Of a stretch of DNA of 64,000 nt, positions 34,115 to 46,404 are shown in pieces (position 1 is the stretch's first letter; every line of letters starts with the position of its first letter). Below the pieces are notes generated by a model. It had not been told where the DNA came from. It worked only from the letters and a program-made list of their open reading frames with translations, and searched no databases. Where the stretch lies: the sequence record PZ738962.1. One strand, given 5' to 3'. The DNA is from a phage. A program made the translations under genes and the position numbers.

Positions 34115-36166
34115 TTACATTTTAAATTTATCTGGCATTGCGTCTACAGATACCAGATCAGCGATAAGCTGACGTAGAGTTGCCTTATCTGCTTTCTTAC
34201 GTTCGGTTTTAGCTTCGCTAATGAAGCTGGAGAAAGACAGGTCAGAAGCAGGTTTAATAACACCTTCACGGATGAATGCATCACCGTCCGCGATCATCTC
34301 GCCAGATTCTTGTAATGCTGCCAGTTCATTTTTGTTCATAATATGTGCCTCAATGTAATAAGTTTCTTGTGAATCCGTCGATGCCGTAGCACGAGTTACC
34401 GTATCAAAGGATAACACAACACCGCGAGGAAGTAAAATCTCGCATTCTTTGTAAGCAAATGCTTTGTTACCTACTGGCAATACAGGGATGTTTTCCGCGC
34501 CAGCAATGGAGAAAGCAACATTAGCGCCACCTTCACCGCGAGAGCCAGCCATAGAATCAACACCAGCAACGGCACTAGCCACGTTTGCATTCCAGCCGCC
34601 AAAAATGTTAGGTGCAAGGGAAGTGCTCACATAGTTTTTAAAGTAAAACGCTTTTTGCTTACGTGCAGTTTCCCACATTTGCGACCGGAAGTCCATACCA
34701 CGATACAGAATAGTACCCGGATCAAGTTTAACGCCATAGTTGGAGAAGGCATTATCCAGTGCATCGCACATCTTGACCAATTCTTCTGGATCTGCGATGC
34801 CTTCAAACTCTTCCAGCTTACGGTCGGTTAGGAAGTTGTTCATATTGATGTATGCTGCATCGGCATATTCGCTCAACACAAAACCTTCCGCGCCTGGCAG
34901 ATCAAGATCAATATCTGCCATCATTTCACCCATGTTGCTAGCAATTGCTTCAAACATACCGGACGCAACATTACGTAGGGCATCGGTTTTAATCTGGGTG
35001 ATATGACTACGCAGCATTTCAGCTTTTACATCTGCTGGCATAGACTGGTCTACTCGATCCATTGCCAGGACGGTGATCTTGTTTTCGAATACTTCCTCGC
35101 TCATGATTTCTTTTAAGCGTTTGACCGAGGCTGCGATAACTTCCGCAGACAATGGATCATATTGATCCTGAACTTTTACCAGTTCGCTTACTGCGTATTT
35201 TGCATCGGCTTCGCTTTCAAAAATAGTACGCATGAAACCATAGCGAGTGATAATATCACTTGTCCAGTCATTCAGAGAACGAGCGGTTGAACGTTCTAAG
35301 GCTTGACGGTCAATCAGAGTATTAAACTGTTTCTTAGGTTCTGCTTCGGTGATATCTTCTTCCGGTTTAAGATTAATTTTTTCTGGATGATTCACATAGT
35401 CGCTGTTATAGGTCGCTTGAGTTTTCAGCATTTCTTCTTTAGTCAAACGAGATTTAGCCGCTACGCGTTGTTCTGCTTCCGCGTTTCGTTCTTCTTCTGA
35501 CACAAGACTAGCCGCATATGCCTCATCTTTAGTCAGAGATTCACCAGTAGCCTTAGATACCCAGCGATCACCTAAATCACTTTCTACTTTAGTGAACAAG
35601 GATTCATCAAGTTTAATCCCTTTAATCTTATCAATCGCCATCCCGCGACGCTTGACAACAACTAAAGCGATCTTTTTGCTGGTCATTACTTCCTGCTGGA
35701 ATACTTCAAACTTCGGTGTACGACGCACCAAACGCTCTATAACGCGCTTAACCAGTTCGGTCTTACCTTTCATGCGGGATACGTTAAAACGGAACATAAC
35801 AGCGTCTAATTGCGCTTTACGGGCTGTTTCCATAACCACATCAAAAGCACTTGACATAACTGCAATCGGGTTATCGCCTAGACCATTTTTAAGCTGTACA
35901 ATACGACCGCTTTTGTTCATTTCGCACAGTACAACATGTGCGGTCTTGTCACCCATACGAATGATTTTAGGTGTTTTGTTGGTGAAGTTACAAAGACGGA
36001 CAATCACATCTTTATCGCGTGTCTGTACTGCAAAAAGTTGTTTAGGATTCTGCTTAGGCTTTAAGCACTGTATCGGAGCAATACTGCCAAAGTTTTCTTC
36101 CTCTTCCGTCAACAGCCATTTCTCGAAAGATTCAATCATTAGATCGTCGATTTCTAAGTTAAACAT
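34115..36166 (-). CDS. alt: Alt ADP-ribosyltransferase (injected internal head protein)
   Basis: 683 aa (T4 Alt about 682); C-terminal ART motifs YRG / STS / ECEILLPRG; position after gene 54. Confidence 0.8.
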   Translation of the reverse strand: MFNLEIDDLMIESFEKWLLTEEEENFGSIAPIQCLKPKQNPKQLFAVQTRDKDVIVRLCNFTNKTPKIIRMGDKTAHVVLCEMNKSGRIVQLKNGLGDNPIAVMSSAFDVVMETARKAQLDAVMFRFNVSRMKGKTELVKRVIERLVRRTPKFEVFQQEVMTSKKIALVVVKRRGMAIDKIKGIKLDESLFTKVESDLGDRWVSKATGESLTKDEAYAASLVSEEERNAEAEQRVAAKSRLTKEEMLKTQATYNSDYVNHPEKINLKPEEDITEAEPKKQFNTLIDRQALERSTARSLNDWTSDIITRYGFMRTIFESEADAKYAVSELVKVQDQYDPLSAEVIAASVKRLKEIMSEEVFENKITVLAMDRVDQSMPADVKAEMLRSHITQIKTDALRNVASGMFEAIASNMGEMMADIDLDLPGAEGFVLSEYADAAYINMNNFLTDRKLEEFEGIADPEELVKMCDALDNAFSNYGVKLDPGTILYRGMDFRSQMWETARKQKAFYFKNYVSTSLAPNIFGGWNANVASAVAGVDSMAGSRGEGGANVAFSIAGAENIPVLPVGNKAFAYKECEILLPRGVVLSFDTVTRATASTDSQETYYIEAHIMNKNELAALQESGEMIADGDAFIREGVIKPASDLSFSSFISEAKTERKKADKATLRQLIADLVSVDAMPDKFKM

Positions 36167-36768: not shown

Positions 36769-37287
36769 TTAGTTATTTTTTAATTGCTCATCTTGCAATA
36801 GGGCAATCACATGCTGGCGATGTTCTTCCGATTGAGGAACACCGAAAAAGTTTGTTTTGTAGAAATACTCTAATCGGTCTTCTCGTGTGCTCTCTTCCAT
36901 CATGATCGCGGGTAGTCCGAGATTTCGGAAACGTCGCTTTTCTGCTGACGTAAAATCACTGTAATACAACATAGAATCATCATTACCAGCAATGCTAAAC
37001 TCATCTTTCATAAAGGAGAATATTGCGTTTAAACGCTGTTTACCGTCCACGATTTCGATCTCATAGCGAGAGCCATCATCAATCTTAGCCATTGCGATAG
37101 CACCAACCGGAAAATCATTAATCAGGTTTTCGATAAACATACGTTTGTTTTCGGTGTCCCATACCAAAGGACGCTGATAATCTGGGTTCATGTTGATATA
37201 GCCATCTTCTAACCACGCCTCATAAACAGAGATGACAAAGTTTTTAGTATTGGTATAGTAACGGCGTTTAGGCGTTAAACGGTTCAT
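36769..37287 (-). CDS. DUF262 / ParB-Srx-like domain protein (stand-alone)
   Basis: ORF-track start is TTG; ATG at 37287 has AGGAGA Shine-Dalgarno and abuts the upstream stop; motifs NPDYQRPLVW and VDGKQRLNAI (DGQQR-like). Confidence 0.55.
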   Translation of the reverse strand: MNRLTPKRRYYTNTKNFVISVYEAWLEDGYINMNPDYQRPLVWDTENKRMFIENLINDFPVGAIAMAKIDDGSRYEIEIVDGKQRLNAIFSFMKDEFSIAGNDDSMLYYSDFTSAEKRRFRNLGLPAIMMEESTREDRLEYFYKTNFFGVPQSEEHRQHVIALLQDEQLKNN

Positions 37288-37288
37288 G

Positions 37289-37621
37289 TTATAGTCTCCT
37301 GAATGGATCATCACGTAAATCAATATCTTTTAAGAACTCATCCCATGAATGTCGGATATTGTTCTTAATTCTCCAGATAAGCGCAGGGATTGAACGCTCT
37401 CCCATCTGGAAGTATGGATCATATGATCCGTATGCCCAATATGCTACTACAATTCCACAATCAGCGCAATAATATTCTATTTCACTTGCTGGCGACCAAA
37501 GTCCATCAATATGATCAGTGATCTTGCTTTCGATGTTATGGCTATGACAATCAGGGCAACGGATGCAATGACCTTGTTTATCGTAATTTGACGTTAGCGA
37601 ATACTTAAACAATCTCATCAT
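37289..37621 (-). CDS. zinc-ribbon protein
   Basis: 110 aa; CIRCPDC...YYCADCG (two CxxC pairs); translationally coupled on both sides. Confidence 0.5.
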   Translation of the reverse strand: MMRLFKYSLTSNYDKQGHCIRCPDCHSHNIESKITDHIDGLWSPASEIEYYCADCGIVVAYWAYGSYDPYFQMGERSIPALIWRIKNNIRHSWDEFLKDIDLRDDPFRRL

Positions 37622-38334
37622 AGATCCTTATTTGCTTCAAATACTGCCTTTGCGAATCCTCGCGGGGTAAGTGACCTGATAGTCTTTGTTTTCGTTCCTT
37701 TCCCGCCTAGCTTAGAATGCTGTTTACTGTACCCTTTATTAATCTGCAACGGTTTCTTTTCTGGCATTATAAAGCCTTGTCCGGTCCATAAGCAAGTCTT
37801 TTTCGGGTACATATCACGGGCGGCGATATACTCAGGAAACGTAGGATGTTTATCATCTTCCGGCAAATAACCGCCATATTCCCACGGATGTAACATGTAA
37901 TCAGGCTTACGCCACATACTAGAGATAACGCTTACAGGATTCTCTATCATGTAGGGAACTCCTAGCCATTCACCCAAATAAGCGGTTATTTTAGCTGCCC
38001 GTACATCATGAACTTGAATCAATGGTCCTTGTTCTCGTTTCTTTCGTTCAAAGTGTGCAGCGCCACTAACAGCTAAATTGGTGCACGGTGGGAATGCAAA
38101 GATAATATCCGGTTTCCCCCATTCAAGGTCCATTGCTCTTTCTAGCCAGTTCAAATCAATCCATGTGTTTACATAGGTAATGTTTGGGTGTTCAAATCTG
38201 GTATTATACTTTTTGTATGTGCCGTGGTCGCCATCGTCAGCATTAAAGCAGATCACCTTATGACCTGCTTTAGCCCATTCTAGCCCCATTATCCCCGATC
38301 CGTCAAAGTTACAGAATATTAATTTTTGTTTCAT
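37618..38334 (-). CDS. minimal C5-cytosine-methyltransferase-like protein (no obvious target-recognition domain)
   Basis: 238 aa; motif I-like FCNFDGSGIMG, motif IV-like IIFAFPPCTNLAVSG (Pro-Cys), motif VI-like YMIENPVSV, motif IX-like RSLTPRGFAKAV; collinear with M.HhaI motif order (recalled). Confidence 0.45.
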   Translation of the reverse strand: MKQKLIFCNFDGSGIMGLEWAKAGHKVICFNADDGDHGTYKKYNTRFEHPNITYVNTWIDLNWLERAMDLEWGKPDIIFAFPPCTNLAVSGAAHFERKKREQGPLIQVHDVRAAKITAYLGEWLGVPYMIENPVSVISSMWRKPDYMLHPWEYGGYLPEDDKHPTFPEYIAARDMYPKKTCLWTGQGFIMPEKKPLQINKGYSKQHSKLGGKGTKTKTIRSLTPRGFAKAVFEANKDL

Positions 38335-38824: not shown

Positions 38825-38864
38825 TGTTTGATTCTCCTAAGTGGTATCTCGTCTTGATGGTTGT

Positions 38865-38893
38865 ATTGTAGGGGAGTTATCCTCCCCTGTCAA
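38865..38893 (-). promoter_or_regulatory. promoter-stem-loop cassette (TTGACA, GGGGAGGATAACTCCCC, TACAAT)
   Basis: palindromic 17 nt spacer between near-consensus hexamers. Confidence 0.55.
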
Positions 38894-38907
38894 CACTTTT
38901 TATAAAA

Positions 38908-39075
38908 TTATTTGTTAATTTCCGGTGCGTTGCTCGGATAGTAACCTTCTTTAACACCCAGATATTTTGCAACCATCCCTACAATCTTCTGTGCTACTAC
39001 AATGTCAAATTTCAGATAATCTTCGCCGTGGGTTTCAATGATATATGCTTCACATGCTGCTTTAGTCTCGAACAT
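38908..39075 (-). CDS. small protein (55 aa), paralog of 42193..42360
   Basis: hand-translated MFETKAACEAYIIETHGEDYLKFDIVVAQKIVGMVAKYLGVKEGYYPSNAPEINK. Confidence 0.4.
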   Translation of the reverse strand: MFETKAACEAYIIETHGEDYLKFDIVVAQKIVGMVAKYLGVKEGYYPSNAPEINK

Positions 39076-39108
39076 TTTGATTCTCCTATATCTCGTTGGT
39101 ATGTGTGC

Positions 39109-39137
39109 ATTATAGGGGATCTCCCGATCCCCGTCAA
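39109..39137 (-). promoter_or_regulatory. promoter-stem-loop cassette (TTGACG, GGGGATCGGGAGATCCCC, TATAAT)
   Basis: read directly. Confidence 0.55.
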
Positions 39138-39151
39138 CAACTTTTTTAAAA

Positions 39152-39433
39152 TTATTCGTGATTAGTTTCGATATTGTGCATTTTGCACCAGTTTAGCCAA
39201 TCACCCAGATCCTGATAGTTAATGCTTTTATCTGCTGCCATCGTTTTTGTCTTGATACCCATATGTGCGTTATGAGTAAGCATTTTTACAGTGAACTCAA
39301 TTTTATCACCTTTAGCTTTAACATCAACCAGTTTGGTCCACTGGCTACCAGCGCCGCGAATGTTCATACCAACGATGTTTCCGATGTATGCTTCTTTGTT
39401 TTTCAGGATTTCGGTTGCTTTGATGAATTTCAT
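39152..39433 (-). CDS. hypothetical protein
   Basis: 93 aa; Shine-Dalgarno plus ATG; cassette upstream. Confidence 0.45.
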   Translation of the reverse strand: MKFIKATEILKNKEAYIGNIVGMNIRGAGSQWTKLVDVKAKGDKIEFTVKMLTHNAHMGIKTKTMAADKSINYQDLGDWLNWCKMHNIETNHE

Positions 39434-39466
39434 TTTTGATTCTCCAGTTCGTTTCGGTATGGGTGT

Positions 39467-39495
39467 ATTATGCTATGTTCTTACTTTGGTGTCAA
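39467..39495 (-). promoter_or_regulatory. sigma70-like early promoter (TTGACA-17-CATAAT)
   Basis: read directly. Confidence 0.5.
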
Positions 39496-39503
39496 CAACT
39501 TTT

Positions 39504-39773
39504 TTAGATATTTTCAGAAATAAATTTTAAAACTTGACGTAAATGTTTCTCATCTTTGATAGTCGCCGGAAGTTCTTCTTTTACTTCCTGTGCAAGATAG
39601 ATATTTCCGTTCCAAGTGAAAGATCCGTCTTCGTTTACGCGATAGCTGAACATCCACTCGCAATCATTTTCGATTTCATATACACACAGAAGGGTGTAAT
39701 CGTTAAAGCTATTGATTTCAAGGTCGAAGCCGTGACGTTTTGCAAAGTTGGTAGTGGTTTTAGTCAGTGCCAT
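39504..39773 (-). CDS. hypothetical protein
   Basis: 89 aa. Confidence 0.45.
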   Translation of the reverse strand: MALTKTTTNFAKRHGFDLEINSFNDYTLLCVYEIENDCEWMFSYRVNEDGSFTWNGNIYLAQEVKEELPATIKDEKHLRQVLKFISENI

Positions 39774-39813
39774 TGTTTGATTCTCCTAAGTGGTATCTCG
39801 TTTCGATGGGTGT

Positions 39814-39842
39814 ATTATGCTATAGGCGTGATCTGGTGTCAA
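39814..39842 (-). promoter_or_regulatory. sigma70-like early promoter (TTGACA-17-CATAAT)
   Basis: read directly. Confidence 0.5.
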
Positions 39843-39863
39843 CAACTTTTTTTAATTTTTTGG

Positions 39864-39892
39864 AAATAAAAAAGCCGACACTAAGGTCGGCT
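39864..39892 (-). terminator. hairpin agccgac...gtcggct plus T-run (minus strand)
   Basis: read directly; downstream of 39900..40208. Confidence 0.5.
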
Positions 39893-39899
39893 AATAAAA

Positions 39900-40208
39900 T
39901 CATTTAGACAAGTAATCATTCTGTGCAATACGGTCGGCGTATGCTGGTGTTACGTCAATCGCAATCACTTTAACGCGTGCTTTCTTGCGACCTGGGTTTT
40001 CTCGTAACCAGTGCTCATGACCGTGAACATTTTTATACTTTGATGCTTCTTCAAATGTACGGATCGGACCTGGATAATCTGCGTAAAGGATCTCTAGGTC
40101 TTCGGTGATGTAAAAATATACATCATAATTACTGTTCTCTAGTTTAAGCAGAGACTTTCGGAACATTGGGAGATTTTCGCGGGTAAATTCAAAGATATTA
40201 TCTTTCAT
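39900..40208 (-). CDS. H-x-H-W family protein, member A
   Basis: 102 aa; YDVYFYITEDL...HGHEHW...KVIAIDV. Confidence 0.5.
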   Translation of the reverse strand: MKDNIFEFTRENLPMFRKSLLKLENSNYDVYFYITEDLEILYADYPGPIRTFEEASKYKNVHGHEHWLRENPGRKKARVKVIAIDVTPAYADRIAQNDYLSK

Positions 40209-40231
40209 AGTATTATCCTCAATAGTTTGAT

Positions 40232-40258
40232 GAAAAGGGGTGGGGCTTAACGCCCCGT
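40232..40258 (-). terminator. hairpin ggggc-ttaac-gcccc plus T-run (minus strand)
   Basis: read directly. Confidence 0.45.
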
Positions 40259-40261
40259 ATA

Positions 40262-40549
40262 TTAAAACAGTCCTTCCTGTACACCGTAGTAGAGTTCATC
40301 GCTGATAATTTCATTAATGCGACGGTGTGCATATTCCTGATTTGCGAAGTTATCAGCAAGTTCTACTTTAGTTTCTCCGTCATGAGTCCATTTAGTGATA
40401 ACTTTACCATCTGCAAATTTGAAGTTGAACTCTTTAGCTACTGCATCGCGTACCAGACGTGCGAACTTGTTATTACGGATTGCATTATCGGTTTCGTGTG
40501 CAGCGTGAGCGAATTTGTTAACTTTCAGAGTGATAGTAATGTATGCCAT
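40262..40549 (-). CDS. hypothetical protein (paralog of 43575..43886)
   Basis: 95 aa; shares VR.A.AKEFN.K motif with 43575..43886. Confidence 0.45.
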   Translation of the reverse strand: MAYITITLKVNKFAHAAHETDNAIRNNKFARLVRDAVAKEFNFKFADGKVITKWTHDGETKVELADNFANQEYAHRRINEIISDELYYGVQEGLF

Positions 40550-40595
40550 AATTTGATTCTCCTAGTTAGAAAGTGTATCTCGTTTCGATGGGTGT

Positions 40596-40624
40596 ATTAT
40601 GCTATACACCCGATCTTATGTCAA
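40596..40624 (-). promoter_or_regulatory. sigma70-like early promoter (TTGACA-17-CATAAT)
   Basis: read directly. Confidence 0.5.
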
Positions 40625-40630
40625 CACTTT

Positions 40631-40909
40631 TTATAAAATAATTTTTTGATATTTTTCTATGATGTTTGTGTAGGTCACGTCAACCGCTAGCACCGTTGCT
40701 TCGAATCCACCGTTTAGCCAATGGCTATGATCATGATCGTGAAAGAAACCAAGACCAGTACGAAGACCTTCTTTATATTCGGCGCGTACATTTAGATCAT
40801 CATCGATAAACAGATAAAACCATGAATTTTTACTAGGATTGATGATACAACCTTTCAGATTAGGGAGAATATCACGACTAAGAATAAACTTATCACCTAC
40901 TTTGAACAT
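40631..40909 (-). CDS. H-x-H-W family protein, member B
   Basis: start moved to ATG at 40909 (GAGGA Shine-Dalgarno); WFYLFIDDDL...HDHSHW...TVLAVDV. Confidence 0.5.
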   Translation of the reverse strand: MFKVGDKFILSRDILPNLKGCIINPSKNSWFYLFIDDDLNVRAEYKEGLRTGLGFFHDHDHSHWLNGGFEATVLAVDVTYTNIIEKYQKIIL

Positions 40910-40913
40910 AATA

Positions 40914-41234
40914 TTAGTCCTCATTTATAAGGTCAAACCAATTGTTTTTCGCATAATGCTTAATGCGTGCTTGATCTGCTTCCGCTGGTGATAGATTCCA
41001 TGCAACCACTACAACTTCTGACGCATCGTCATCCGTTTCTGATACCCAATGATTGTGATTCATACAGTTATTTGCGATCGAGTGAGCAAATGATTTCATC
41101 ACTGGAGACGTATAATCATAGTAACGGATTTTCAGATTTTCATCAACGTACAAATAGATCGTATAAGGTTTATATTCAGTAACCAGTAACAGACAGTTAC
41201 GCAATTCTGGGAAAATCTTTTTAGTTAATTTCAT
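40914..41234 (-). CDS. H-x-H-W family protein, member C
   Basis: start moved to ATG at 41234 (GAGGA Shine-Dalgarno, directly after upstream stop); YTIYLYVDENL...MNHNHW...VVVAWN. Confidence 0.45.
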   Translation of the reverse strand: MKLTKKIFPELRNCLLLVTEYKPYTIYLYVDENLKIRYYDYTSPVMKSFAHSIANNCMNHNHWVSETDDDASEVVVVAWNLSPAEADQARIKHYAKNNWFDLINED

Positions 41235-41235
41235 T

Positions 41236-41454
41236 TTATAATCCTCGGTCGCGGCTATAGTACACGGTACGCCATACAATTTCATGTTTCGTGTCGCTCC
41301 AGCACACGATCTCATTTACTCTTAAATCTTTGTTATCAACAAAAGATGAACATTGTGACGCTTCTTTCATCATTTTATCTGCTGTTTTCTCATCAAATAC
41401 AGCACAGATTTCTTTATACACTCGATAATCTTTGAATTGACTCTGAATACCCAT
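41236..41454 (-). CDS. hypothetical small protein (paralog of 41414..41671)
   Basis: 72 aa; shares F.EKMM..AS.C.SF with the next gene. Confidence 0.4.
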   Translation of the reverse strand: MGIQSQFKDYRVYKEICAVFDEKTADKMMKEASQCSSFVDNKDLRVNEIVCWSDTKHEIVWRTVYYSRDRGL

Positions 41455-41671
41455 AATTCACACCATTCCAACCAATTGTTTTTGAGAAAACGTTTATCCA
41501 CTGTTGAGTGTAACATGTTTCTTTCCATGATACAATACGAGTAGAATAATGGTTTTTGTTTCCAGAAAAGGACGGGCATTTTGATGCATCTTCCATCATC
41601 TTTTCGGCGAACTCTGGTGCGTATACTCGCAGGATCTGTTGATATGCTTTGTATTCTTTAAATTTGCTCAT
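41414..41671 (-). CDS. hypothetical small protein (paralog of 41236..41454)
   Basis: start moved to ATG 41671 (AAGGT Shine-Dalgarno). Confidence 0.4.
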   Translation of the reverse strand: MSKFKEYKAYQQILRVYAPEFAEKMMEDASKCPSFSGNKNHYSTRIVSWKETCYTQQWINVFSKTIGWNGVNYGYSESIQRLSSV

Positions 41672-41936
41672 AATCATTCACTACCTTATCAGCTTCTTTT
41701 GTTGTTTTTACATCAACTGCGATAACTCGTAAAGGTTCGTCATGGTTCCACCAGTGGTCATGAATATCAGCTTGTGATTTATCACCAAAGGAATCACGAA
41801 TATCATTTTTACATTTATAGCTAATGTGACCTTCATAGTCAACATAAAGGTAATTATCGAAAATCGGCGTTTTTAAGATCATACCGAAAAATCTTTCTTT
41901 GTGTGTCTTATCCAGCGTTGCAGTAATTCGCATCAT
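41658..41936 (-). CDS. H-x-H-W family protein, member D
   Basis: 92 aa; NYLYVDYEG...IHDHWW...RVIAVDV. Confidence 0.5.
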   Translation of the reverse strand: MMRITATLDKTHKERFFGMILKTPIFDNYLYVDYEGHISYKCKNDIRDSFGDKSQADIHDHWWNHDEPLRVIAVDVKTTKEADKVVNDYEQI

Positions 41937-41948
41937 AATATATTCCTC

Positions 41949-42128
41949 TTAGAAAGGGATGGTCATTTCTTGAGCTTGTACATTCTCGTTAGGATTAAAC
42001 TTCATCCAGCCGATATTGTCTACCAGCATATGCACATTTTTATCATATCCTACGTGAGTAGTCAACACTAAATGTGCTTTATCTTCAATGATGAGTTCCA
42101 TGTACTTCTGAACTTCGATAGCTTTCAT
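41949..42128 (-). CDS. hypothetical small protein (59 aa, below ORF-track cutoff)
   Basis: hand-translated MKAIEVQKYMELIIEDKAHLVL...; Shine-Dalgarno plus ATG; cassette upstream. Confidence 0.3.
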   Translation of the reverse strand: MKAIEVQKYMELIIEDKAHLVLTTHVGYDKNVHMLVDNIGWMKFNPNENVQAQEMTIPF

Positions 42129-42160
42129 TTTGATTCTCCGTTTGTTGTCTTGATGGGAGT

Positions 42161-42189
42161 ATCTTACTACTCCCTTTAATCATTGTCAA
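42161..42189 (-). promoter_or_regulatory. promoter-stem-loop cassette (TTGACA, palindromic GGGAGTAGTA spacer, TAAGAT)
   Basis: read directly; same cassette type as 51787, 52294. Confidence 0.45.
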
Positions 42190-42192
42190 CTA

Positions 42193-42360
42193 TTATTTGT
42201 TAATTTCTGGTGCGTTGCTCGGATAGTAACCTTCTTTAACACCCAGATATTTTGCGACCATTCCGGTGATCTTCTGTGCTACTACGATATCGAATTTCAG
42301 GTAATCTTCACCGTGGTTTGCTACAATGTATGCTTCGCATTCTGCTTTAGTCTGGAACAT
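42193..42360 (-). CDS. small protein (55 aa), paralog of 38908..39075
   Basis: ORF-track start 42447 runs through the promoter; ATG 42360 gives MFQTKAECEAYIVANHGEDYLKFDIVVAQK... Confidence 0.4.
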   Translation of the reverse strand: MFQTKAECEAYIVANHGEDYLKFDIVVAQKITGMVAKYLGVKEGYYPSNAPEINK

Positions 42361-42394
42361 TTTTGATTCTCCTATATCTCGTTGGTATGTGTGC

Positions 42395-42423
42395 ATTATA
42401 GGGGATCGGTGATCCCCTGTCAA
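42395..42423 (-). promoter_or_regulatory. promoter-stem-loop cassette (TTGACA, GGGGATCACCGATCCCC, TATAAT)
   Basis: perfect consensus hexamers, 17 nt palindromic spacer. Confidence 0.6.
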
Positions 42424-42430
42424 CAACTTT

Positions 42431-42739
42431 TTATTCTTCATCTTCATTTTTATCTTTATATGCGTACTTCATAAATTTGTCTGCTACTTTGTCCGCGTTT
42501 TCAGGTTCGACGTCTGACGCTAGGACAACAGCTAGTTCGGTTTTGTCGTTTCCATCATACCAATGATTATGAGTGTCGTTTTCTTCGATATAAAACGAAT
42601 CATTTGGAGTTGTGCGACAATATACGTCTAAATTCCCGTCGATATAAAAGATCCAATCCGAATACAAAATGATTGCTTTAGCCAGATTTTTATTGTCTCT
42701 TACAAAAGGTTCCGCGACAAATAGCTTAGTATGTTCCAT
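42431..42739 (-). CDS. H-x-H-W family protein, member E
   Basis: start moved to ATG 42739 (GAGGA Shine-Dalgarno); WIFYIDGNL...DTHNHW...LAVVLASDV. Confidence 0.5.
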   Translation of the reverse strand: MEHTKLFVAEPFVRDNKNLAKAIILYSDWIFYIDGNLDVYCRTTPNDSFYIEENDTHNHWYDGNDKTELAVVLASDVEPENADKVADKFMKYAYKDKNEDEE

Positions 42740-42755
42740 AGTATTTTCCTCAAAA

Positions 42756-42947
42756 TTATACAGCTTCGTAAACTTCCCAATGTCCAACACCAGCACGCTT
42801 AACGAAAAGGTTTTCTTTGATGTTATTCATAAACGTCTGGATGGATTTAATGCGGTTTGAAGGTTTCCAGTCTTCGTTGGCATTGCGTCGATACATCATA
42901 ACATTACCAGTTCGCTTATATTCAGCAACCATTTTAAGACCACACAT
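42756..42947 (-). CDS. hypothetical small protein
   Basis: 63 aa; GAGGA Shine-Dalgarno. Confidence 0.4.
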   Translation of the reverse strand: MCGLKMVAEYKRTGNVMMYRRNANEDWKPSNRIKSIQTFMNNIKENLFVKRAGVGHWEVYEAV

Positions 42948-43003
42948 AATATTATCCTCAATTTGTGGGAGAGTATTACCCTCCCGATTATTGTTATACT
43001 ACA

Positions 43004-43306
43004 TTACGCAAAATGGCGTGTCAATGCTTCTTTTGCTGTTCCGCTAAGATTCTCGATCTCTCCTGGCATAACATCAACCGCAAGAACTTCTACAACATCC
43101 TCTGATCCTAACCAGTGAGTATGACCTTTGTAGAACTTGATATCCCATTTATCGCTATCGCTAGCCCACCACACATCACCGTCGATAAAGTTGATGTAAA
43201 GCACACTACGCCACATTGAATTAATTACTTTCAATACTGCGCCTTTCATCTCTTCCACGGTGTGGTCTTCCATTTTGAAGACCTCGCCTACCTTAACTTT
43301 TGCCAT
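43004..43306 (-). CDS. H-x-H-W family protein, member F
   Basis: 100 aa; LYINFIDGDVW...KGHTHW...EVLAVDV. Confidence 0.5.
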   Translation of the reverse strand: MAKVKVGEVFKMEDHTVEEMKGAVLKVINSMWRSVLYINFIDGDVWWASDSDKWDIKFYKGHTHWLGSEDVVEVLAVDVMPGEIENLSGTAKEALTRHFA

Positions 43307-43323
43307 TTAGTCACCTCTCTTTA

Positions 43324-43503
43324 TTACATAACAATCACGCCCGCCGTTGAAAGTTGATGTTTCAACTGAGCATTTTCTGCTACCGTCAAATCAATGATTT
43401 CTTGTGACGCTGCAATCATATAGCCATTGGTGATATTGTTTTGCATCAGTTCAATGGTTTCTTCGTTGTAGCGGATTTTAGCGATGATTTCGTTGAAGTT
43501 CAT
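43324..43503 (-). CDS. hypothetical small protein (59 aa)
   Basis: ORF-track start runs into the promoter; ATG 43503 with AGGAGAATCAATT. Confidence 0.35.
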   Translation of the reverse strand: MNFNEIIAKIRYNEETIELMQNNITNGYMIAASQEIIDLTVAENAQLKHQLSTAGVIVM

Positions 43504-43537
43504 AATTGATTCTCCTAGTTCGTTTCGGTATGTGTGT

Positions 43538-43566
43538 AGTATAGGGGATCGGTGATCCCCTGTCAA
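43538..43566 (-). promoter_or_regulatory. promoter-stem-loop cassette (TTGACA, GGGGATCACCGATCCCC, TATACT)
   Basis: read directly. Confidence 0.55.
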
Positions 43567-43574
43567 CAACTTTT

Positions 43575-43886
43575 TTAAAGTTTTTCCATGATAACGGTCA
43601 TAATTACATCTTCTGCGCGAGCGGTCAGATTATCAGCGTCAGCATGTGGGCGGCTGGTTGTTACAGAGATAACACCGTTGCGCACTGGTTTGATGTTGAT
43701 ATCAAGATGATCCGCGAAACGTTCGCCAGTTACAGAATGAATTTTGGTGTTAAATTCTTTTGCCAGTGCCTTGCGAACTTCACGAATCAGGGTAGCGTTT
43801 TTCAGTTGGTTCTCCGCGCTCATGGTCTTCTGGGTGTTCATGGTTCCGTCGAAGTCAATCATTGGCAGCGTTACGATGTATTTCAT
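43575..43886 (-). CDS. hypothetical protein (paralog of 40262..40549)
   Basis: start moved to ATG 43886 (MKYIVTLPM...); shares KEFN.K motif. Confidence 0.45.
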   Translation of the reverse strand: MKYIVTLPMIDFDGTMNTQKTMSAENQLKNATLIREVRKALAKEFNTKIHSVTGERFADHLDINIKPVRNGVISVTTSRPHADADNLTARAEDVIMTVIMEKL

Positions 43887-43931
43887 TTTTGATTCTCCGT
43901 TTAAGAAAGTGTGTTTCGTTTTGATGTGTGT

Positions 43932-43960
43932 AGTATAGGGGATCACCGATCCCCTGTCAA
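43932..43960 (-). promoter_or_regulatory. promoter-stem-loop cassette (TTGACA, GGGGATCGGTGATCCCC, TATACT)
   Basis: read directly. Confidence 0.55.
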
Positions 43961-43972
43961 CAACTTTTTGAA

Positions 43973-44449
43973 TTATTTTTCTTGATGCTCGCGATCGTAC
44001 TTTTCGAAATAAAATTCTACTGGCTGGTCGTGGATTGACAGCAAGCCAAAGCGTTTAGCCGCTCGCAATCCCATATTGCGCTGAATGTACTTCTGGAAGT
44101 TCTCGCGTATACACTTACGCCAGTATTCTAAGCCCATACAGCTTTTATAAAGATTGCATTGCACACACGCCGGATTCATGTTATCAAGTATATCATGCTC
44201 CGGTTTATGCATTCCTACAACCTTATATTTCCATGATCCATCATCATTACGGGCAATTCGTCCATTTTCATCATAGACTACCTTTGAGCGTCGCAATACT
44301 GGTTTGATGTGGTCCGCGTGCCAGCGATCCCCTAGTTCCTCGCCACAATAGGCACAACGTCCACCATATTTCATTTTCAGGATCTGGCGTTGCTCTTTCT
44401 TTGACAATTTTTTAGGTTTAGGGGCTTTCGCCCCTTCATTATCACACAT
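43973..44449 (-). CDS. HNH homing endonuclease (Mob-like), free-standing upstream of ligase
   Basis: 158 aa; CAYCG...HADHIKP...N...CVQCN (HNH with zinc-binding Cys pairs); stop overlaps ligase start region. Confidence 0.65.
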   Translation of the reverse strand: MCDNEGAKAPKPKKLSKKEQRQILKMKYGGRCAYCGEELGDRWHADHIKPVLRRSKVVYDENGRIARNDDGSWKYKVVGMHKPEHDILDNMNPACVQCNLYKSCMGLEYWRKCIRENFQKYIQRNMGLRAAKRFGLLSIHDQPVEFYFEKYDREHQEK

Positions 44450-45938
44450 CGAATACCTCTTTTACTGTATTTGCAGTGGTCTTGTCGTAGCGAATACGTT
44501 TGATGATTGGGAGAAATAAAGAGAACTCCGGTTCATCTTCTTTACGTGATTTGCTGCGGATATACCCGTTGCATGTCATCTCAATGACTTTTCCAATCAG
44601 GTTATGACGGTCAGCCCATAACATTTCTCGGTCGAGTTCATTTCGACGATCGAACGGAATTACACGTTCGATACCATCATCACCTTTTTCGGTTGTAGTG
44701 TCGGTTAATCCCGATCCGGTGTTAGTCATCATTCGTCCGCACGCACTACGGACAGTAAAACCGCCTACCTTATTGGGGTCTTTACTATGCGGATATACAT
44801 CAACAATTTCCGCGTCGAAGTCAATCACTTCTTTAAATTTAACCTGATCTTTACTACGGCGATCTTCAAATACACCATGTAAATTTTTAAGGATAATACC
44901 TTCTAAGCCCATGTTGACATAACGATGATATACTTCGCGAGCTTCATCGATATTGTTAACTACAGTGTTTTCGATGATCTGAACACGAGGATCGTTAAGT
45001 TCTTCAACAATCTGTTTTAGTTCTTCGAATCGATCTTTATATTGCTTCGTTGCTTTCTCGTTTCCGTAATACACATCACGGTCGATAACATCCCAGACAG
45101 TGTAAACAATACATTGGGCTTCTTCTTTTGGAATAGTTCCTTTAAGTGATTTGTTGAGGATACCATTTCCGGTCTGACGATCTGCAACAACGGATTCTTT
45201 CACTGCTTCCGCTACTGGCGTTAATGGCATTTCCTCTTCTTCAAATATCCATGACAGAGTACCATCATAAACGCTTTCAACGAAGTTCTGCGCTGGTGTT
45301 TGAGAAAGGGTAGGCATATATACCAATTCGCCATCTAGAACAATTCCACGGCCTCGTAGACGCTCTAAAACCGCAAACAAATCATCAAGCCCTTGATAGG
45401 TATTACCTGAGCGGGTATAGATTGCTAATGTTTCCCCGTCAATATCAGCCATACCACGAGCGCCATCGCTTTTAAGTTGTGCATACGCCGGATACTTGAT
45501 ATTAGCAATCGTCTTATCAGAACATGACGATGCAAGGTGGCACGGTTGCTGGGGGATCAGTTTCTTCCATACCTTGTTTGCAGTGGTAGCGGAACAGCCG
45601 CATTCCAGATCACGATTCAGGACCATCATTGCAACTTTAGCATCATCCTCTGACAAGCAAGTCAGAGTATCGGTAACTAGTTGTAATGCTGCATTACCAG
45701 TTACTTGACGCGTGGCAAGTTTATTTTTAAAGACCTGTAATGCACCGGATAAAGACAATACAGACGAATAGCGAGACGGTTTATCGTATTTCTTTACGCC
45801 AAACGTAACCTGTTTGCAATATGCCAGATAAAAGCATTCTTTCAGCGTTTCATTGCTTGCTGATTCTTTCAGAATCTTTTCTTTCAGCGATGTTTTGTCT
45901 GTTGCTGCAAGCTGATTAATGATATTAAGAATTGACAT
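44442..45938 (-). CDS. 30: ATP-dependent DNA ligase gp30
   Basis: ORF-track start is GTG; ATG 45938 with GAGGTG Shine-Dalgarno; adenylation motif AQLKSDGAR (KxDG); collinear with recalled T4 ligase. Confidence 0.9.
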   Translation of the reverse strand: MSILNIINQLAATDKTSLKEKILKESASNETLKECFYLAYCKQVTFGVKKYDKPSRYSSVLSLSGALQVFKNKLATRQVTGNAALQLVTDTLTCLSEDDAKVAMMVLNRDLECGCSATTANKVWKKLIPQQPCHLASSCSDKTIANIKYPAYAQLKSDGARGMADIDGETLAIYTRSGNTYQGLDDLFAVLERLRGRGIVLDGELVYMPTLSQTPAQNFVESVYDGTLSWIFEEEEMPLTPVAEAVKESVVADRQTGNGILNKSLKGTIPKEEAQCIVYTVWDVIDRDVYYGNEKATKQYKDRFEELKQIVEELNDPRVQIIENTVVNNIDEAREVYHRYVNMGLEGIILKNLHGVFEDRRSKDQVKFKEVIDFDAEIVDVYPHSKDPNKVGGFTVRSACGRMMTNTGSGLTDTTTEKGDDGIERVIPFDRRNELDREMLWADRHNLIGKVIEMTCNGYIRSKSRKEDEPEFSLFLPIIKRIRYDKTTANTVKEVFDV

Positions 45939-46404
45939 TTTCACCTCGTTTTGTTAAACGTTCACGAATATCATTGAGGATACTACAAAATTCCGATTCA
46001 GTCAATATAGTCTTTAACGGATCAGTTCCACCTATACTATGACGTAATTTCTTATTTCCGGTAGCGAGTAATGCTTTACAAAATTCTGGGTTATTCCGTG
46101 CCATCGTAACAAATGCCAGATGTACCAGTCTGTAATAATGCTCACTCATTCGATGAATCGGGCGACCCTGAAAATATAACATGTGATTCTCAATCTTTTC
46201 AGTTCTTCCGGTTCTTTTTGCTTTGCCACCGTGCATCAAAAAGATTTCTCTTTGTCTCTGAGGGTTCTTAAATCTTAGCCCCTGTAAAAATCCTTCTGTG
46301 CTGTTAATATCGCAGCCAAATAAACGGAATGGTCTTTTATTGAAATTACTCAATTCACCCGATGGATAGGGTCCACCCGCATAGATATCAATTTCAGAAG
46401 TCAT
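45925..46404 (-). CDS. NADAR (YbiA-like) domain protein
   Basis: 159 aa; YAGGPYPSGELSNF...STEGFLQGLRF...EFCKALLATGNKKL parallels E. coli YbiA FYS..FSNFA...TSEHYFQAQKF...ELRALLLATAP (recalled). Confidence 0.55.
   Translation of the reverse strand: MTSEIDIYAGGPYPSGELSNFNKRPFRLFGCDINSTEGFLQGLRFKNPQRQREIFLMHGGKAKRTGRTEKIENHMLYFQGRPIHRMSEHYYRLVHLAFVTMARNNPEFCKALLATGNKKLRHSIGGTDPLKTILTESEFCSILNDIRERLTKRGENVNS

Follow-up and report, generated by a model that had tools for sequence, protein, structure and literature searches.

We report that six small genes, p1 to p6, in a 64,000-nucleotide stretch of phage DNA (sequence record PZ738962.1; "the window" denotes this whole stretch) encode an old and maintained family of paralogous proteins that share the motif His-x-His-Trp (HxHW). 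As a tentatively preferred reading, the six HxHW proteins may be small soluble binding proteins, which have one shared conserved site and subfamily-specific surfaces and act early on host physiology or defense. By nucleotide identity, the window is a genome of Krischvirus, the RB49-like T4-type coliphages: Krischvirus genomes (kaaroe, RB49, phi1-like phages, and others) were 94–97% identical to the 4.5 kb around the six-gene region, and the 59 records that matched the region among 50,697 phage records were all of the Krischvirus group. The features of the window are collected in Table 1.

Table 1. Positions of the six HxHW genes, promoter cassettes, and neighboring genes in the window.
Feature	Position	Strand	Remarks
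p1, 102 aa, HEHW	39900..40208	minus	ortholog RB49p197; phrog_9345, E = 2.4e-49; Shine-Dalgarno sequence tgaggataatactATG
p2, 92 aa, HDHDHSHW	40631..40909	minus	ortholog RB49p199; phrog_17255
p3, 106 aa, HNHW	40914..41234	minus	ortholog RB49p200; phrog_9345, E = 4.2e-52
p4, 92 aa, HDHW	41658..41936	minus	ortholog RB49p203; phrog_15972
p5, 102 aa, HNHW	42431..42739	minus	RB49p206 position; phrog_15965
p6, 100 aa, HTHW	43004..43306	minus	ortholog RB49p208; phrog_16486
PeSL array	38844-43973	minus	copies start at 38844, 39088, 39446, 39793, 40575, 42140, 42374, 43517, 43911
PeSL, TTGACA-17-TATACT with GGGGATC..GATCCCC	43517..43579	minus	repeat family D1; promoter scan 11/12
PeSL, TTGACA-17-TATAAT	42374..42436	minus	12/12; directly after p5 stop; equals RB49 PeSL206/205
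Weaker PeSL-like copy, TTGACA-17-TAAGAT	42140..42202	minus	repeat and promoter scan
PeSL after p2 stop	40575..40637	minus	repeat and promoter scan
Intrinsic-terminator-like hairpin, AGCCGAC..GTCGGCT with T run	39873..39892	minus	8 nt after p1 stop
Sigma70-like match in p6 3' end	43024-42996	minus	10/12
Sigma70-like match in p3 3' end	40936-40908	minus	10/12
59-aa gene upstream of p6	43324-43503
63-aa gene between p6 and p5	42756-42947
59-aa gene upstream of p4	41949-42128
phrog_8009, 55-aa copies	38908-39075; 42193-42360	minus	within 172-nt repeat
phrog_7474, 95-aa copy	40262-40549	minus	directly upstream of p1
phrog_7474, paralog	43575-43886	minus
phrog_8471 pair	41236-41454; 41414-41677	minus	between p4 and p3
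Second ADP-ribosyltransferase, 274 aa	33212-34036	minus	ADPrib_exo_Tox paralog; flanking gene
alt	34115-36166	minus	flanking gene
GmrSD_N-domain protein (DUF262-type)	36769-37323	minus	Pfam E = 3.9e-20
DNA methyltransferase	37618-38334		flanking gene
HNH endonuclease	43973-44449		flanking gene
DNA ligase gp30 (gene 30)	44442-45944		flanking gene
gp30.3	45925-46404		flanking gene

The six HxHW proteins as one paralogous family

An original prediction made from the letters of this DNA had delimited six open reading frames (ORFs) as a paralogous family, and all six were found on the minus strand with exactly the boundaries it had given them, each encoding H-x-H-W (HEHW, HSHW, HNHW, HDHW, HNHW, and HTHW from p1 to p6). 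A GAGG/GAGGA Shine-Dalgarno sequence was present 7–9 nt 5' of the chosen ATG in all six cases; no such sequence precedes the longer start codons that are possible for p2, p3, and p5. The coordinates of p1 to p4 agree with the annotated gene lengths in RB49 and kaaroe, and p5 and p6 are length variants, RB49p206 being a divergent allele of p5 with 71% identity.

The relationship among the six proteins was evaluated by a leave-one-out procedure, in which a hidden Markov model (HMM) built from five members was searched against ~7,200 sequences consisting of the window ORFs of at least 40 aa and 20 shuffled versions of each. As a result, the left-out member was always the top non-training match, with E-values of 1.2e-13 (p1), 7.9e-10 (p2), 1.1e-12 (p3), 3.9e-7 (p4), 2.7e-9 (p5), and 1.1e-5 (p6), whereas the best decoy reached E = 0.05. 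The claimed paralogy is thus statistically supported, in an alignment where the identity to p1 is 25–32%, and no seventh member was found by these HMMs among the window ORFs. The two accompanying segments were recognizable, but they had been described slightly generously: the Asp of Y-x-Y-I-D is replaced by Thr in p1 and by Asn in p6, and in the AVDV-like strand, p3 has VAWNL and p5 has LASDV.

In PHROGs, the six proteins and their Krischvirus orthologs are distributed over five families, all labeled "unknown function" (E = 1e-49 to 1e-64), with p1 and p3 in one family and the others in one each; cross-hits between these families were weak, and p6 had none. On the profile evidence of the leave-one-out HMMs, the five PHROGs are united into a single HxHW superfamily, and the practical outcome is that they can be merged, together with dozens of "hypothetical protein" annotations, into one family.

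Conservation and evolution of the six genes

The six genes had also been regarded as rapidly evolving, which was not borne out when we compared 13 other loci (RB49, ECD7-like, kaaroe, W115, MIZ6, PHB13, SAP, JEP8, JSE, Brandy, JK32, G2248, and one IMG/VR contig). The order of the family was the same in every locus, and all six positions were occupied in 12, with five in the remaining locus, L003. Pairwise Nei-Gojobori analysis within the genus gave ratios of nonsynonymous to synonymous substitutions (dN/dS) of 0.20, 0.10, 0.17, 0.16, 0.16, and 0.10 for p1 to p6, indicating purifying selection on all six; these values were similar to those of neighboring genes. Turnover was seen only as allele replacement (p5; p3 in JSE) and occasional loss. 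The p5 alleles were either 66–79% or 92–100% identical to the window copy, the alleles in the places of p2 and p3 were more divergent in JSE-type genomes (54% identity for JSE p3), p2 was truncated in L003, and p1 was frameshifted in JSE and kvi (P0075, P0056). The frameshifts show that p1 is individually dispensable, as expected of accessory modulators.

To trace the family further, 1.84 billion representative proteins were searched by full HMMER with a profile made from 26 Krischvirus sequences, and only 24 matches were obtained at E <= 1e-3. They comprised ~20 small proteins of the same type (68–128 aa), a 203-aa tandem fusion, and three long repeat proteins (P0101, P0102, and P0104), the last of which were judged to be spurious products of multi-repeat score sums. 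Each distant homolog was clearly nearest to one paralog type (p3, p4, p5, p6, or p2-like), and because the distant metagenomic homologs each group with one paralog, the six subfamilies are older than the genus. In cultured phages, tblastn with two distant members found Krischvirus-type genomes only, and a locus search based on p3 found only 2 IMG/VR loci. L014, a T4-like metagenomic phage of much greater divergence, has two p5-type copies in the same slot between ligase and alt; as for the other contigs with distant members, L016 is a JSE-like phage and L018 carries an unrelated small-gene region. Taken together, the comparison of sequences identifies the six as old, maintained paralogs with some allele exchange, which are presumably non-redundant.

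Two further observations concern the composition of the family. The tandem fusion, P0089, is a metagenomic protein in which two HxHW-family domains are joined in one polypeptide, and this single natural fusion hints that family members work as dimers. JSE-type genomes have an 88-aa gene adjoining p6 (L016 5918-6184; JSE EpJSE_00215; G2248_00210), which is absent from the window. It scored 12 bits, compared with a maximum of 8.3 in 2,000 shuffles, and keeps the invariant His, with the first His changed to Asn and the Trp to Leu, so that by sequence it looks like a degenerate seventh family member.

The pattern of conservation also bears on the view that the six genes are unimportant cassette cargo, that is, ORFans duplicated and shuffled by recombination between PeSL promoter cassettes (described below) and hitch-hiking in the genome. 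PeSL recombination does shuffle ORFans in this region (Arbiol et al. 2010, PMC2839356), other paralog pairs exist within the same 6 kb, and p1 and p2 are disrupted in the phages and the contig mentioned above. However, all six genes have low dN/dS, their order is fixed, the subfamilies predate the genus, and the second His and the Trp of the motif are invariant in all 105 sequences examined, so that this view, which was already disfavored, is highly improbable.

Searches for known families and folds

No significant or consistent Pfam match was obtained for the six proteins or for a set of 34 family members, the best being isolated and having E > 0.003, and nothing was found for the six in NCBIfam and PADLOC scans. 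The original prediction would have been refuted by a match to a characterized T4 family; none was found, the best E-value of the family HMM being 0.44 over 696 T4 ORFs (140 kb, including all early regions), in which H-x-H-W was also absent. Pfam T4_Y03C was matched by one member, with E = 0.1 only. A literature search found no paper on the HxHW family. Together with the searches of PDB and BFVD, these results agree with the earlier statement that no known fold or family could be assigned.

Several candidate families were considered and rejected. There was no consistent Pfam match to the Cupin metal-binding fold, and the G-x5-H-x-H-x3,4-E-x6-G pattern was not found; neither were the H-phi-H-phi-H-phi-phi motif and fold of the HIT family. 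The papain-like, NlpC/P60, and C39 cysteine peptidases were dismissed for lack of a conserved Cys in the family, and no homology was detected to a characterized member of the known anti-defense families (Acr, Tad, Acb, and Ocr/Arn-type).

Models predicted by AlphaFold2 (AF2) with family alignments had a predicted local distance difference test score (pLDDT) of 81 and a predicted template modeling score (pTM) of 0.78 for p1, and a pLDDT of 88 and a pTM of 0.82 for p2. The order of elements was alike in the two models: a first strand and a helix precede three strands, the middle one being YLYID, and then come the variable loop, the short helix with (x)HW, the strand VLAVDV, and a helix at the C-terminus. 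Foldseek against BFVD returned the family's own members only. Papain-like structures (Cif, C39, calpain, deubiquitinases, and NlpC/P60) and SH3-like/KOW-type small barrels (mS34, eL14, LSm, RimP, Pelota-N, and MazF) appeared as candidates too weak for fold assignment; the weak SH3/KOW fit consists of the order of elements, of N-termini in p2 and p6 that resemble KOW, and of a "KOW2-KOW3" label given to P0072 by one source. Structural scores for AcrIIA7, Tad2, and the type VI secretion system immunity protein Tis1 (6ox6_B), which have no sequence similarity to the family, were sub-threshold. The AF2 models are therefore confident as predictions, yet unmatched to a known fold.

Conserved residues and possible modes of action

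Residue conservation was determined in 105 unique sequences, which clustered at 60% identity into 20 subgroups sharing <30% identity. The second His and the Trp were present in 105/105, and the first His in 102, being replaced twice by Ser and once by Asp. The Asp of the YID segment was kept in 16 of the 20 subgroups and that of AVDV in 11, and the one recurrent Cys column was occupied in a minority of them. Within orthogroups, the YLYID strand and HxHW were invariant, and substitutions and indels clustered at the very N-terminus and in the loop directly before HxHW. The isoelectric points (pI) are mostly 4.2–6.8, with a few basic members and with p5 very acidic at 4.5, and the grand average of hydropathy is negative in all six, which argues against nucleic-acid binding or membrane location.

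The suggestion that the family might be metal-dependent could mean that Zn2+, Ni2+, or Fe2+ is coordinated by HxH with the help of carboxylates close by or of a second subunit, either as a structural clip or as a functional center. HxH is the commonest short metal-ligand spacing, extra His residues occur in p1 (HGHEHW), p2 (HDHDHSHW), and p4-type proteins (HDHWWNH(D/E)), ~22% of the residues flanking the motif are Asp or Glu, and dimers of the kind suggested by the tandem fusion would be able to complete a site of 2+2 His. On the other hand, a single His is invariant, the His content around the motif was not significantly raised (3.4% vs 2.1%, P = 0.12), no consistent match to Cupin or another metal family was obtained in Pfam, and the motif is on a short helix, not in a strand, in the AF2 models. 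Moreover, the candidate Asp ligands are not conserved, and the family therefore lacks a constant set of three or four residues that could serve as metal ligands. A fixed metal site within one molecule is thus without support, and metal binding in any of these forms seems unlikely.

Metal binding is also brought to mind by the PDB sequence profile search, of which the best match, although non-significant, was PhtD, a pneumococcal histidine-triad Zn-binding protein (E = 0.09). In the Pht repeat (PhtA, 2cs7; PhtD, 9p1v), an aromatic strand with an acidic turn (YTTEDGYIF; YLYIDEDL in the family) is followed ~25 residues on by HxH and an aromatic residue (HMTHSHWI; HDHSHWL in the family). However, when the triad units were rebuilt, hhalign gave a probability of 10.8% over 9 columns that covered only HxHW. 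In addition, the first His of the Pht HxxHxH triad has no counterpart, since no His is conserved at -5 and the extra His of p1 and p2 is at -4, and the Strep_his_triad model of Pfam matched none of the 34 members. Homology to Pht was thus rejected, and the likeness is a motif resemblance instead.

Another explanation is that the proteins are immune-signal sponges like Tad1, Tad2, and Acb2, which are oligomeric early proteins of ~100 aa and trap nucleotides that are cyclic or derived from ADP-ribose; base stacking would be provided by the Trp and contacts to phosphate or ribose by the His residues, and the paralogs would differ in signal. The size, acidity, early expression, and accessory location of the family fit this, and so does an invariant aromatic residue with a His beside variable loops, as in a shared small-ligand pocket. 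Nevertheless, there is no Pfam match to sponge families or to anything else, and the loci show no link to signaling defense systems, leaving this explanation distinctly unlikely.

An invariant His also suggests chemistry, and the six could be small enzymes, such as hydrolases or nucleases, in which it acts as a general base, possibly within a papain-like or another alpha/beta hydrolytic fold in degenerate form. This is very unlikely, considering that no Cys or Ser nucleophile is conserved, that the acidic pI makes RNA or DNA substrates improbable, that a length of 84–111 aa leaves little space for an active-site cleft, and that no enzyme family was matched in Pfam or NCBIfam.

The reading that we tentatively prefer, in which the HxHW proteins are small soluble binding proteins, may be outlined as follows. 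The family would be an old, phage-restricted one of soluble and mostly acidic proteins of 84–111 aa, expressed early from sigma70-type PeSL promoters. According to the models, each protein would fold compactly, with five strands in a sheet or barrel and three short helices, and the invariant His-Trp, usually as His-x-His-Trp, would be located in a short helix between strands 4 and 5, adjoining the most variable loop. The mechanism would be stoichiometric binding rather than catalysis: the invariant His and Trp and the surrounding acidic residues may form a common pocket that recognizes a shared chemical feature (possibly a metal ion, a ligand resembling a nucleotide, or some conserved part of a partner), while the variable loop, the N-terminus, and the C-terminal helix could set the specificity of each subfamily. 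The outcome would be a set of six modulators without redundancy, directed at host physiology or host defense.

Several points weigh against this reading. The invariant polar His could equally be compatible with catalysis, the Trp and the His may be needed simply for folding, and the pocket is a conjecture from predicted models. Furthermore, no conserved partner gene adjoins the family members; the pairing of phrog_7474 with p1 was tested in this respect and is not kept in L014. A host take-over or anti-defense role, which the original prediction had raised, is a reasonable prior in view of the location and the early promoters. A more specific proposal, that the family represents a new small fold with a His/Trp pocket for a metal or nucleotide-type immune signal, whose six specificity variants serve as a counter-defense or take-over toolkit and thus as a new anti-defense family with built-in paralog diversification, is unlikely.

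These results are of interest because Krischviruses, which include RB49, phi1, JSE, and many therapy-candidate coliphages, spend six fixed early genes on one family without a characterized relative. Purifying selection and an invariant His-Trp beside a hypervariable loop make the family a well-defined and cheap experimental target, for which natural frameshift mutants exist. If the proteins bind host defense components or signaling molecules, they would be a new family in the anti-defense repertoire and an example of old, stable paralog diversification in phage counter-defense, as opposed to recent gene amplification; if not, they would be one more ORFan family of the T4-type hyperplastic region.

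Promoters and transcription units

The early character of the six genes is suggested by the nine copies of a ~63-nt cassette, PeSL, that were located on the minus strand in the interval of 38.8–44.0 kb. The cassette consists of TTGACA-17-TATAAT, with 11–12 of 12 matches, and a GGGGATC...GATCCCC stem-loop, which lies between the hexamers or overlies them; AGGAGA and then the next ATG follow. In RB49 and phi1, PeSLs are strong sigma70-like early promoters and also effective terminators, which are found at the borders of non-essential ORFans and bring about modular shuffling (Arbiol et al. 2010, PMC2839356), and PeSL206/205, the equivalent of the copy directly after the p5 stop, was cloned for a promoter-function test (PMC2839356). 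Considering the promoter type and that study, the six genes are probably expressed early. PeSLs are also present in L014 (TTGACAGGGGATC...GATCCCCTATAAT).

The gene spacing suggests three transcription units. The first would run from the PeSL at 43.5 kb through a 59-aa gene, p6, and a 63-aa gene to p5, where the PeSL directly after the p5 stop would end this unit and start the next. The second would be driven by the PeSLs at 42.4 and 42.2 kb and comprise a 55-aa gene, another 59-aa gene, p4, the phrog_8471 pair, p3, and p2; the genes from this 59-aa gene through p2, which are headed by the weaker PeSL-like copy, are tightly packed, with 4 nt between the p3 stop and the p2 start. The third would extend from the PeSL at 40.6 kb through the 95-aa phrog_7474 gene and p1 to the terminator-like hairpin, the equivalent site of which is annotated as a terminator in phage G2248. 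Gene units in the alt to gene 30 region are thus bounded by a sigma70-consensus promoter and a G/C stem-loop, as is characteristic of PeSL-driven ORFans. Further good sigma70-like matches are situated within p6 and p3, at the 3' end and a short distance before the next gene, and judging from their sequences, they may be internal promoters.

Genomic neighborhood

The six genes occupy a PeSL-rich hyperplastic region in the interval between alt and gene 30, in agreement with the accessory location proposed for them. On one side, alt and the 274-aa ADP-ribosyltransferase are in tandem, a pair that is also found in L014 and L016, and a gene with a GmrSD_N domain sits between alt and the DNA methyltransferase gene. 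GmrSD_N forms the N-terminal part of a type IV restriction enzyme, the nuclease half of which is missing from the phage copy.

Other small genes of the region are also duplicated. The two phrog_8009 copies lie within a repeat of 88% DNA identity, and this duplication or gene conversion is, on that identity, much more recent than the HxHW paralogs. The phrog_7474 pair has no annotated function; the protein of its 95-aa copy was 100% identical in the 12 related loci having it (dN = 0, dS = 0.14) and absent from L003, and it shows 70% identity in the distant phage L014, a constraint that is unusually strong for an ORFan. The genes of the phrog_8471 pair overlap by 41 nt, and the 72-aa copy occurs as two alleles among Krischviruses, about 62% or 100% identical.

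Comparison with known systems

The neighborhood has alt, a second ADP-ribosyltransferase, ligase, and 30.3 in common with T4, but the alt–30 gap of T4 contains alt.1 only, whereas that of Krischvirus is expanded into a hyperplastic region of small ORFs. The HxHW proteins are an uncharacterized family of an ordinary kind, namely, the early ORFans of T4-type hyperplastic regions, although one that is unusually tidy in some respects, with six fixed paralogs, one invariant polar motif, and models that are confident yet unmatched. By term search, the study of RB49 and phi1 (PMC2839356) was found neither to treat the six ORFs as paralogs nor to refer to HxHW. The PeSL-flanked ORFan cassettes described there are among the closest known systems, having in common the phage group, the region, the promoter/stem-loop cassettes, and the class of small non-essential early ORFans; the ORFans highlighted in that study vary in presence and absence, whereas the six HxHW genes are fixed across the genus.

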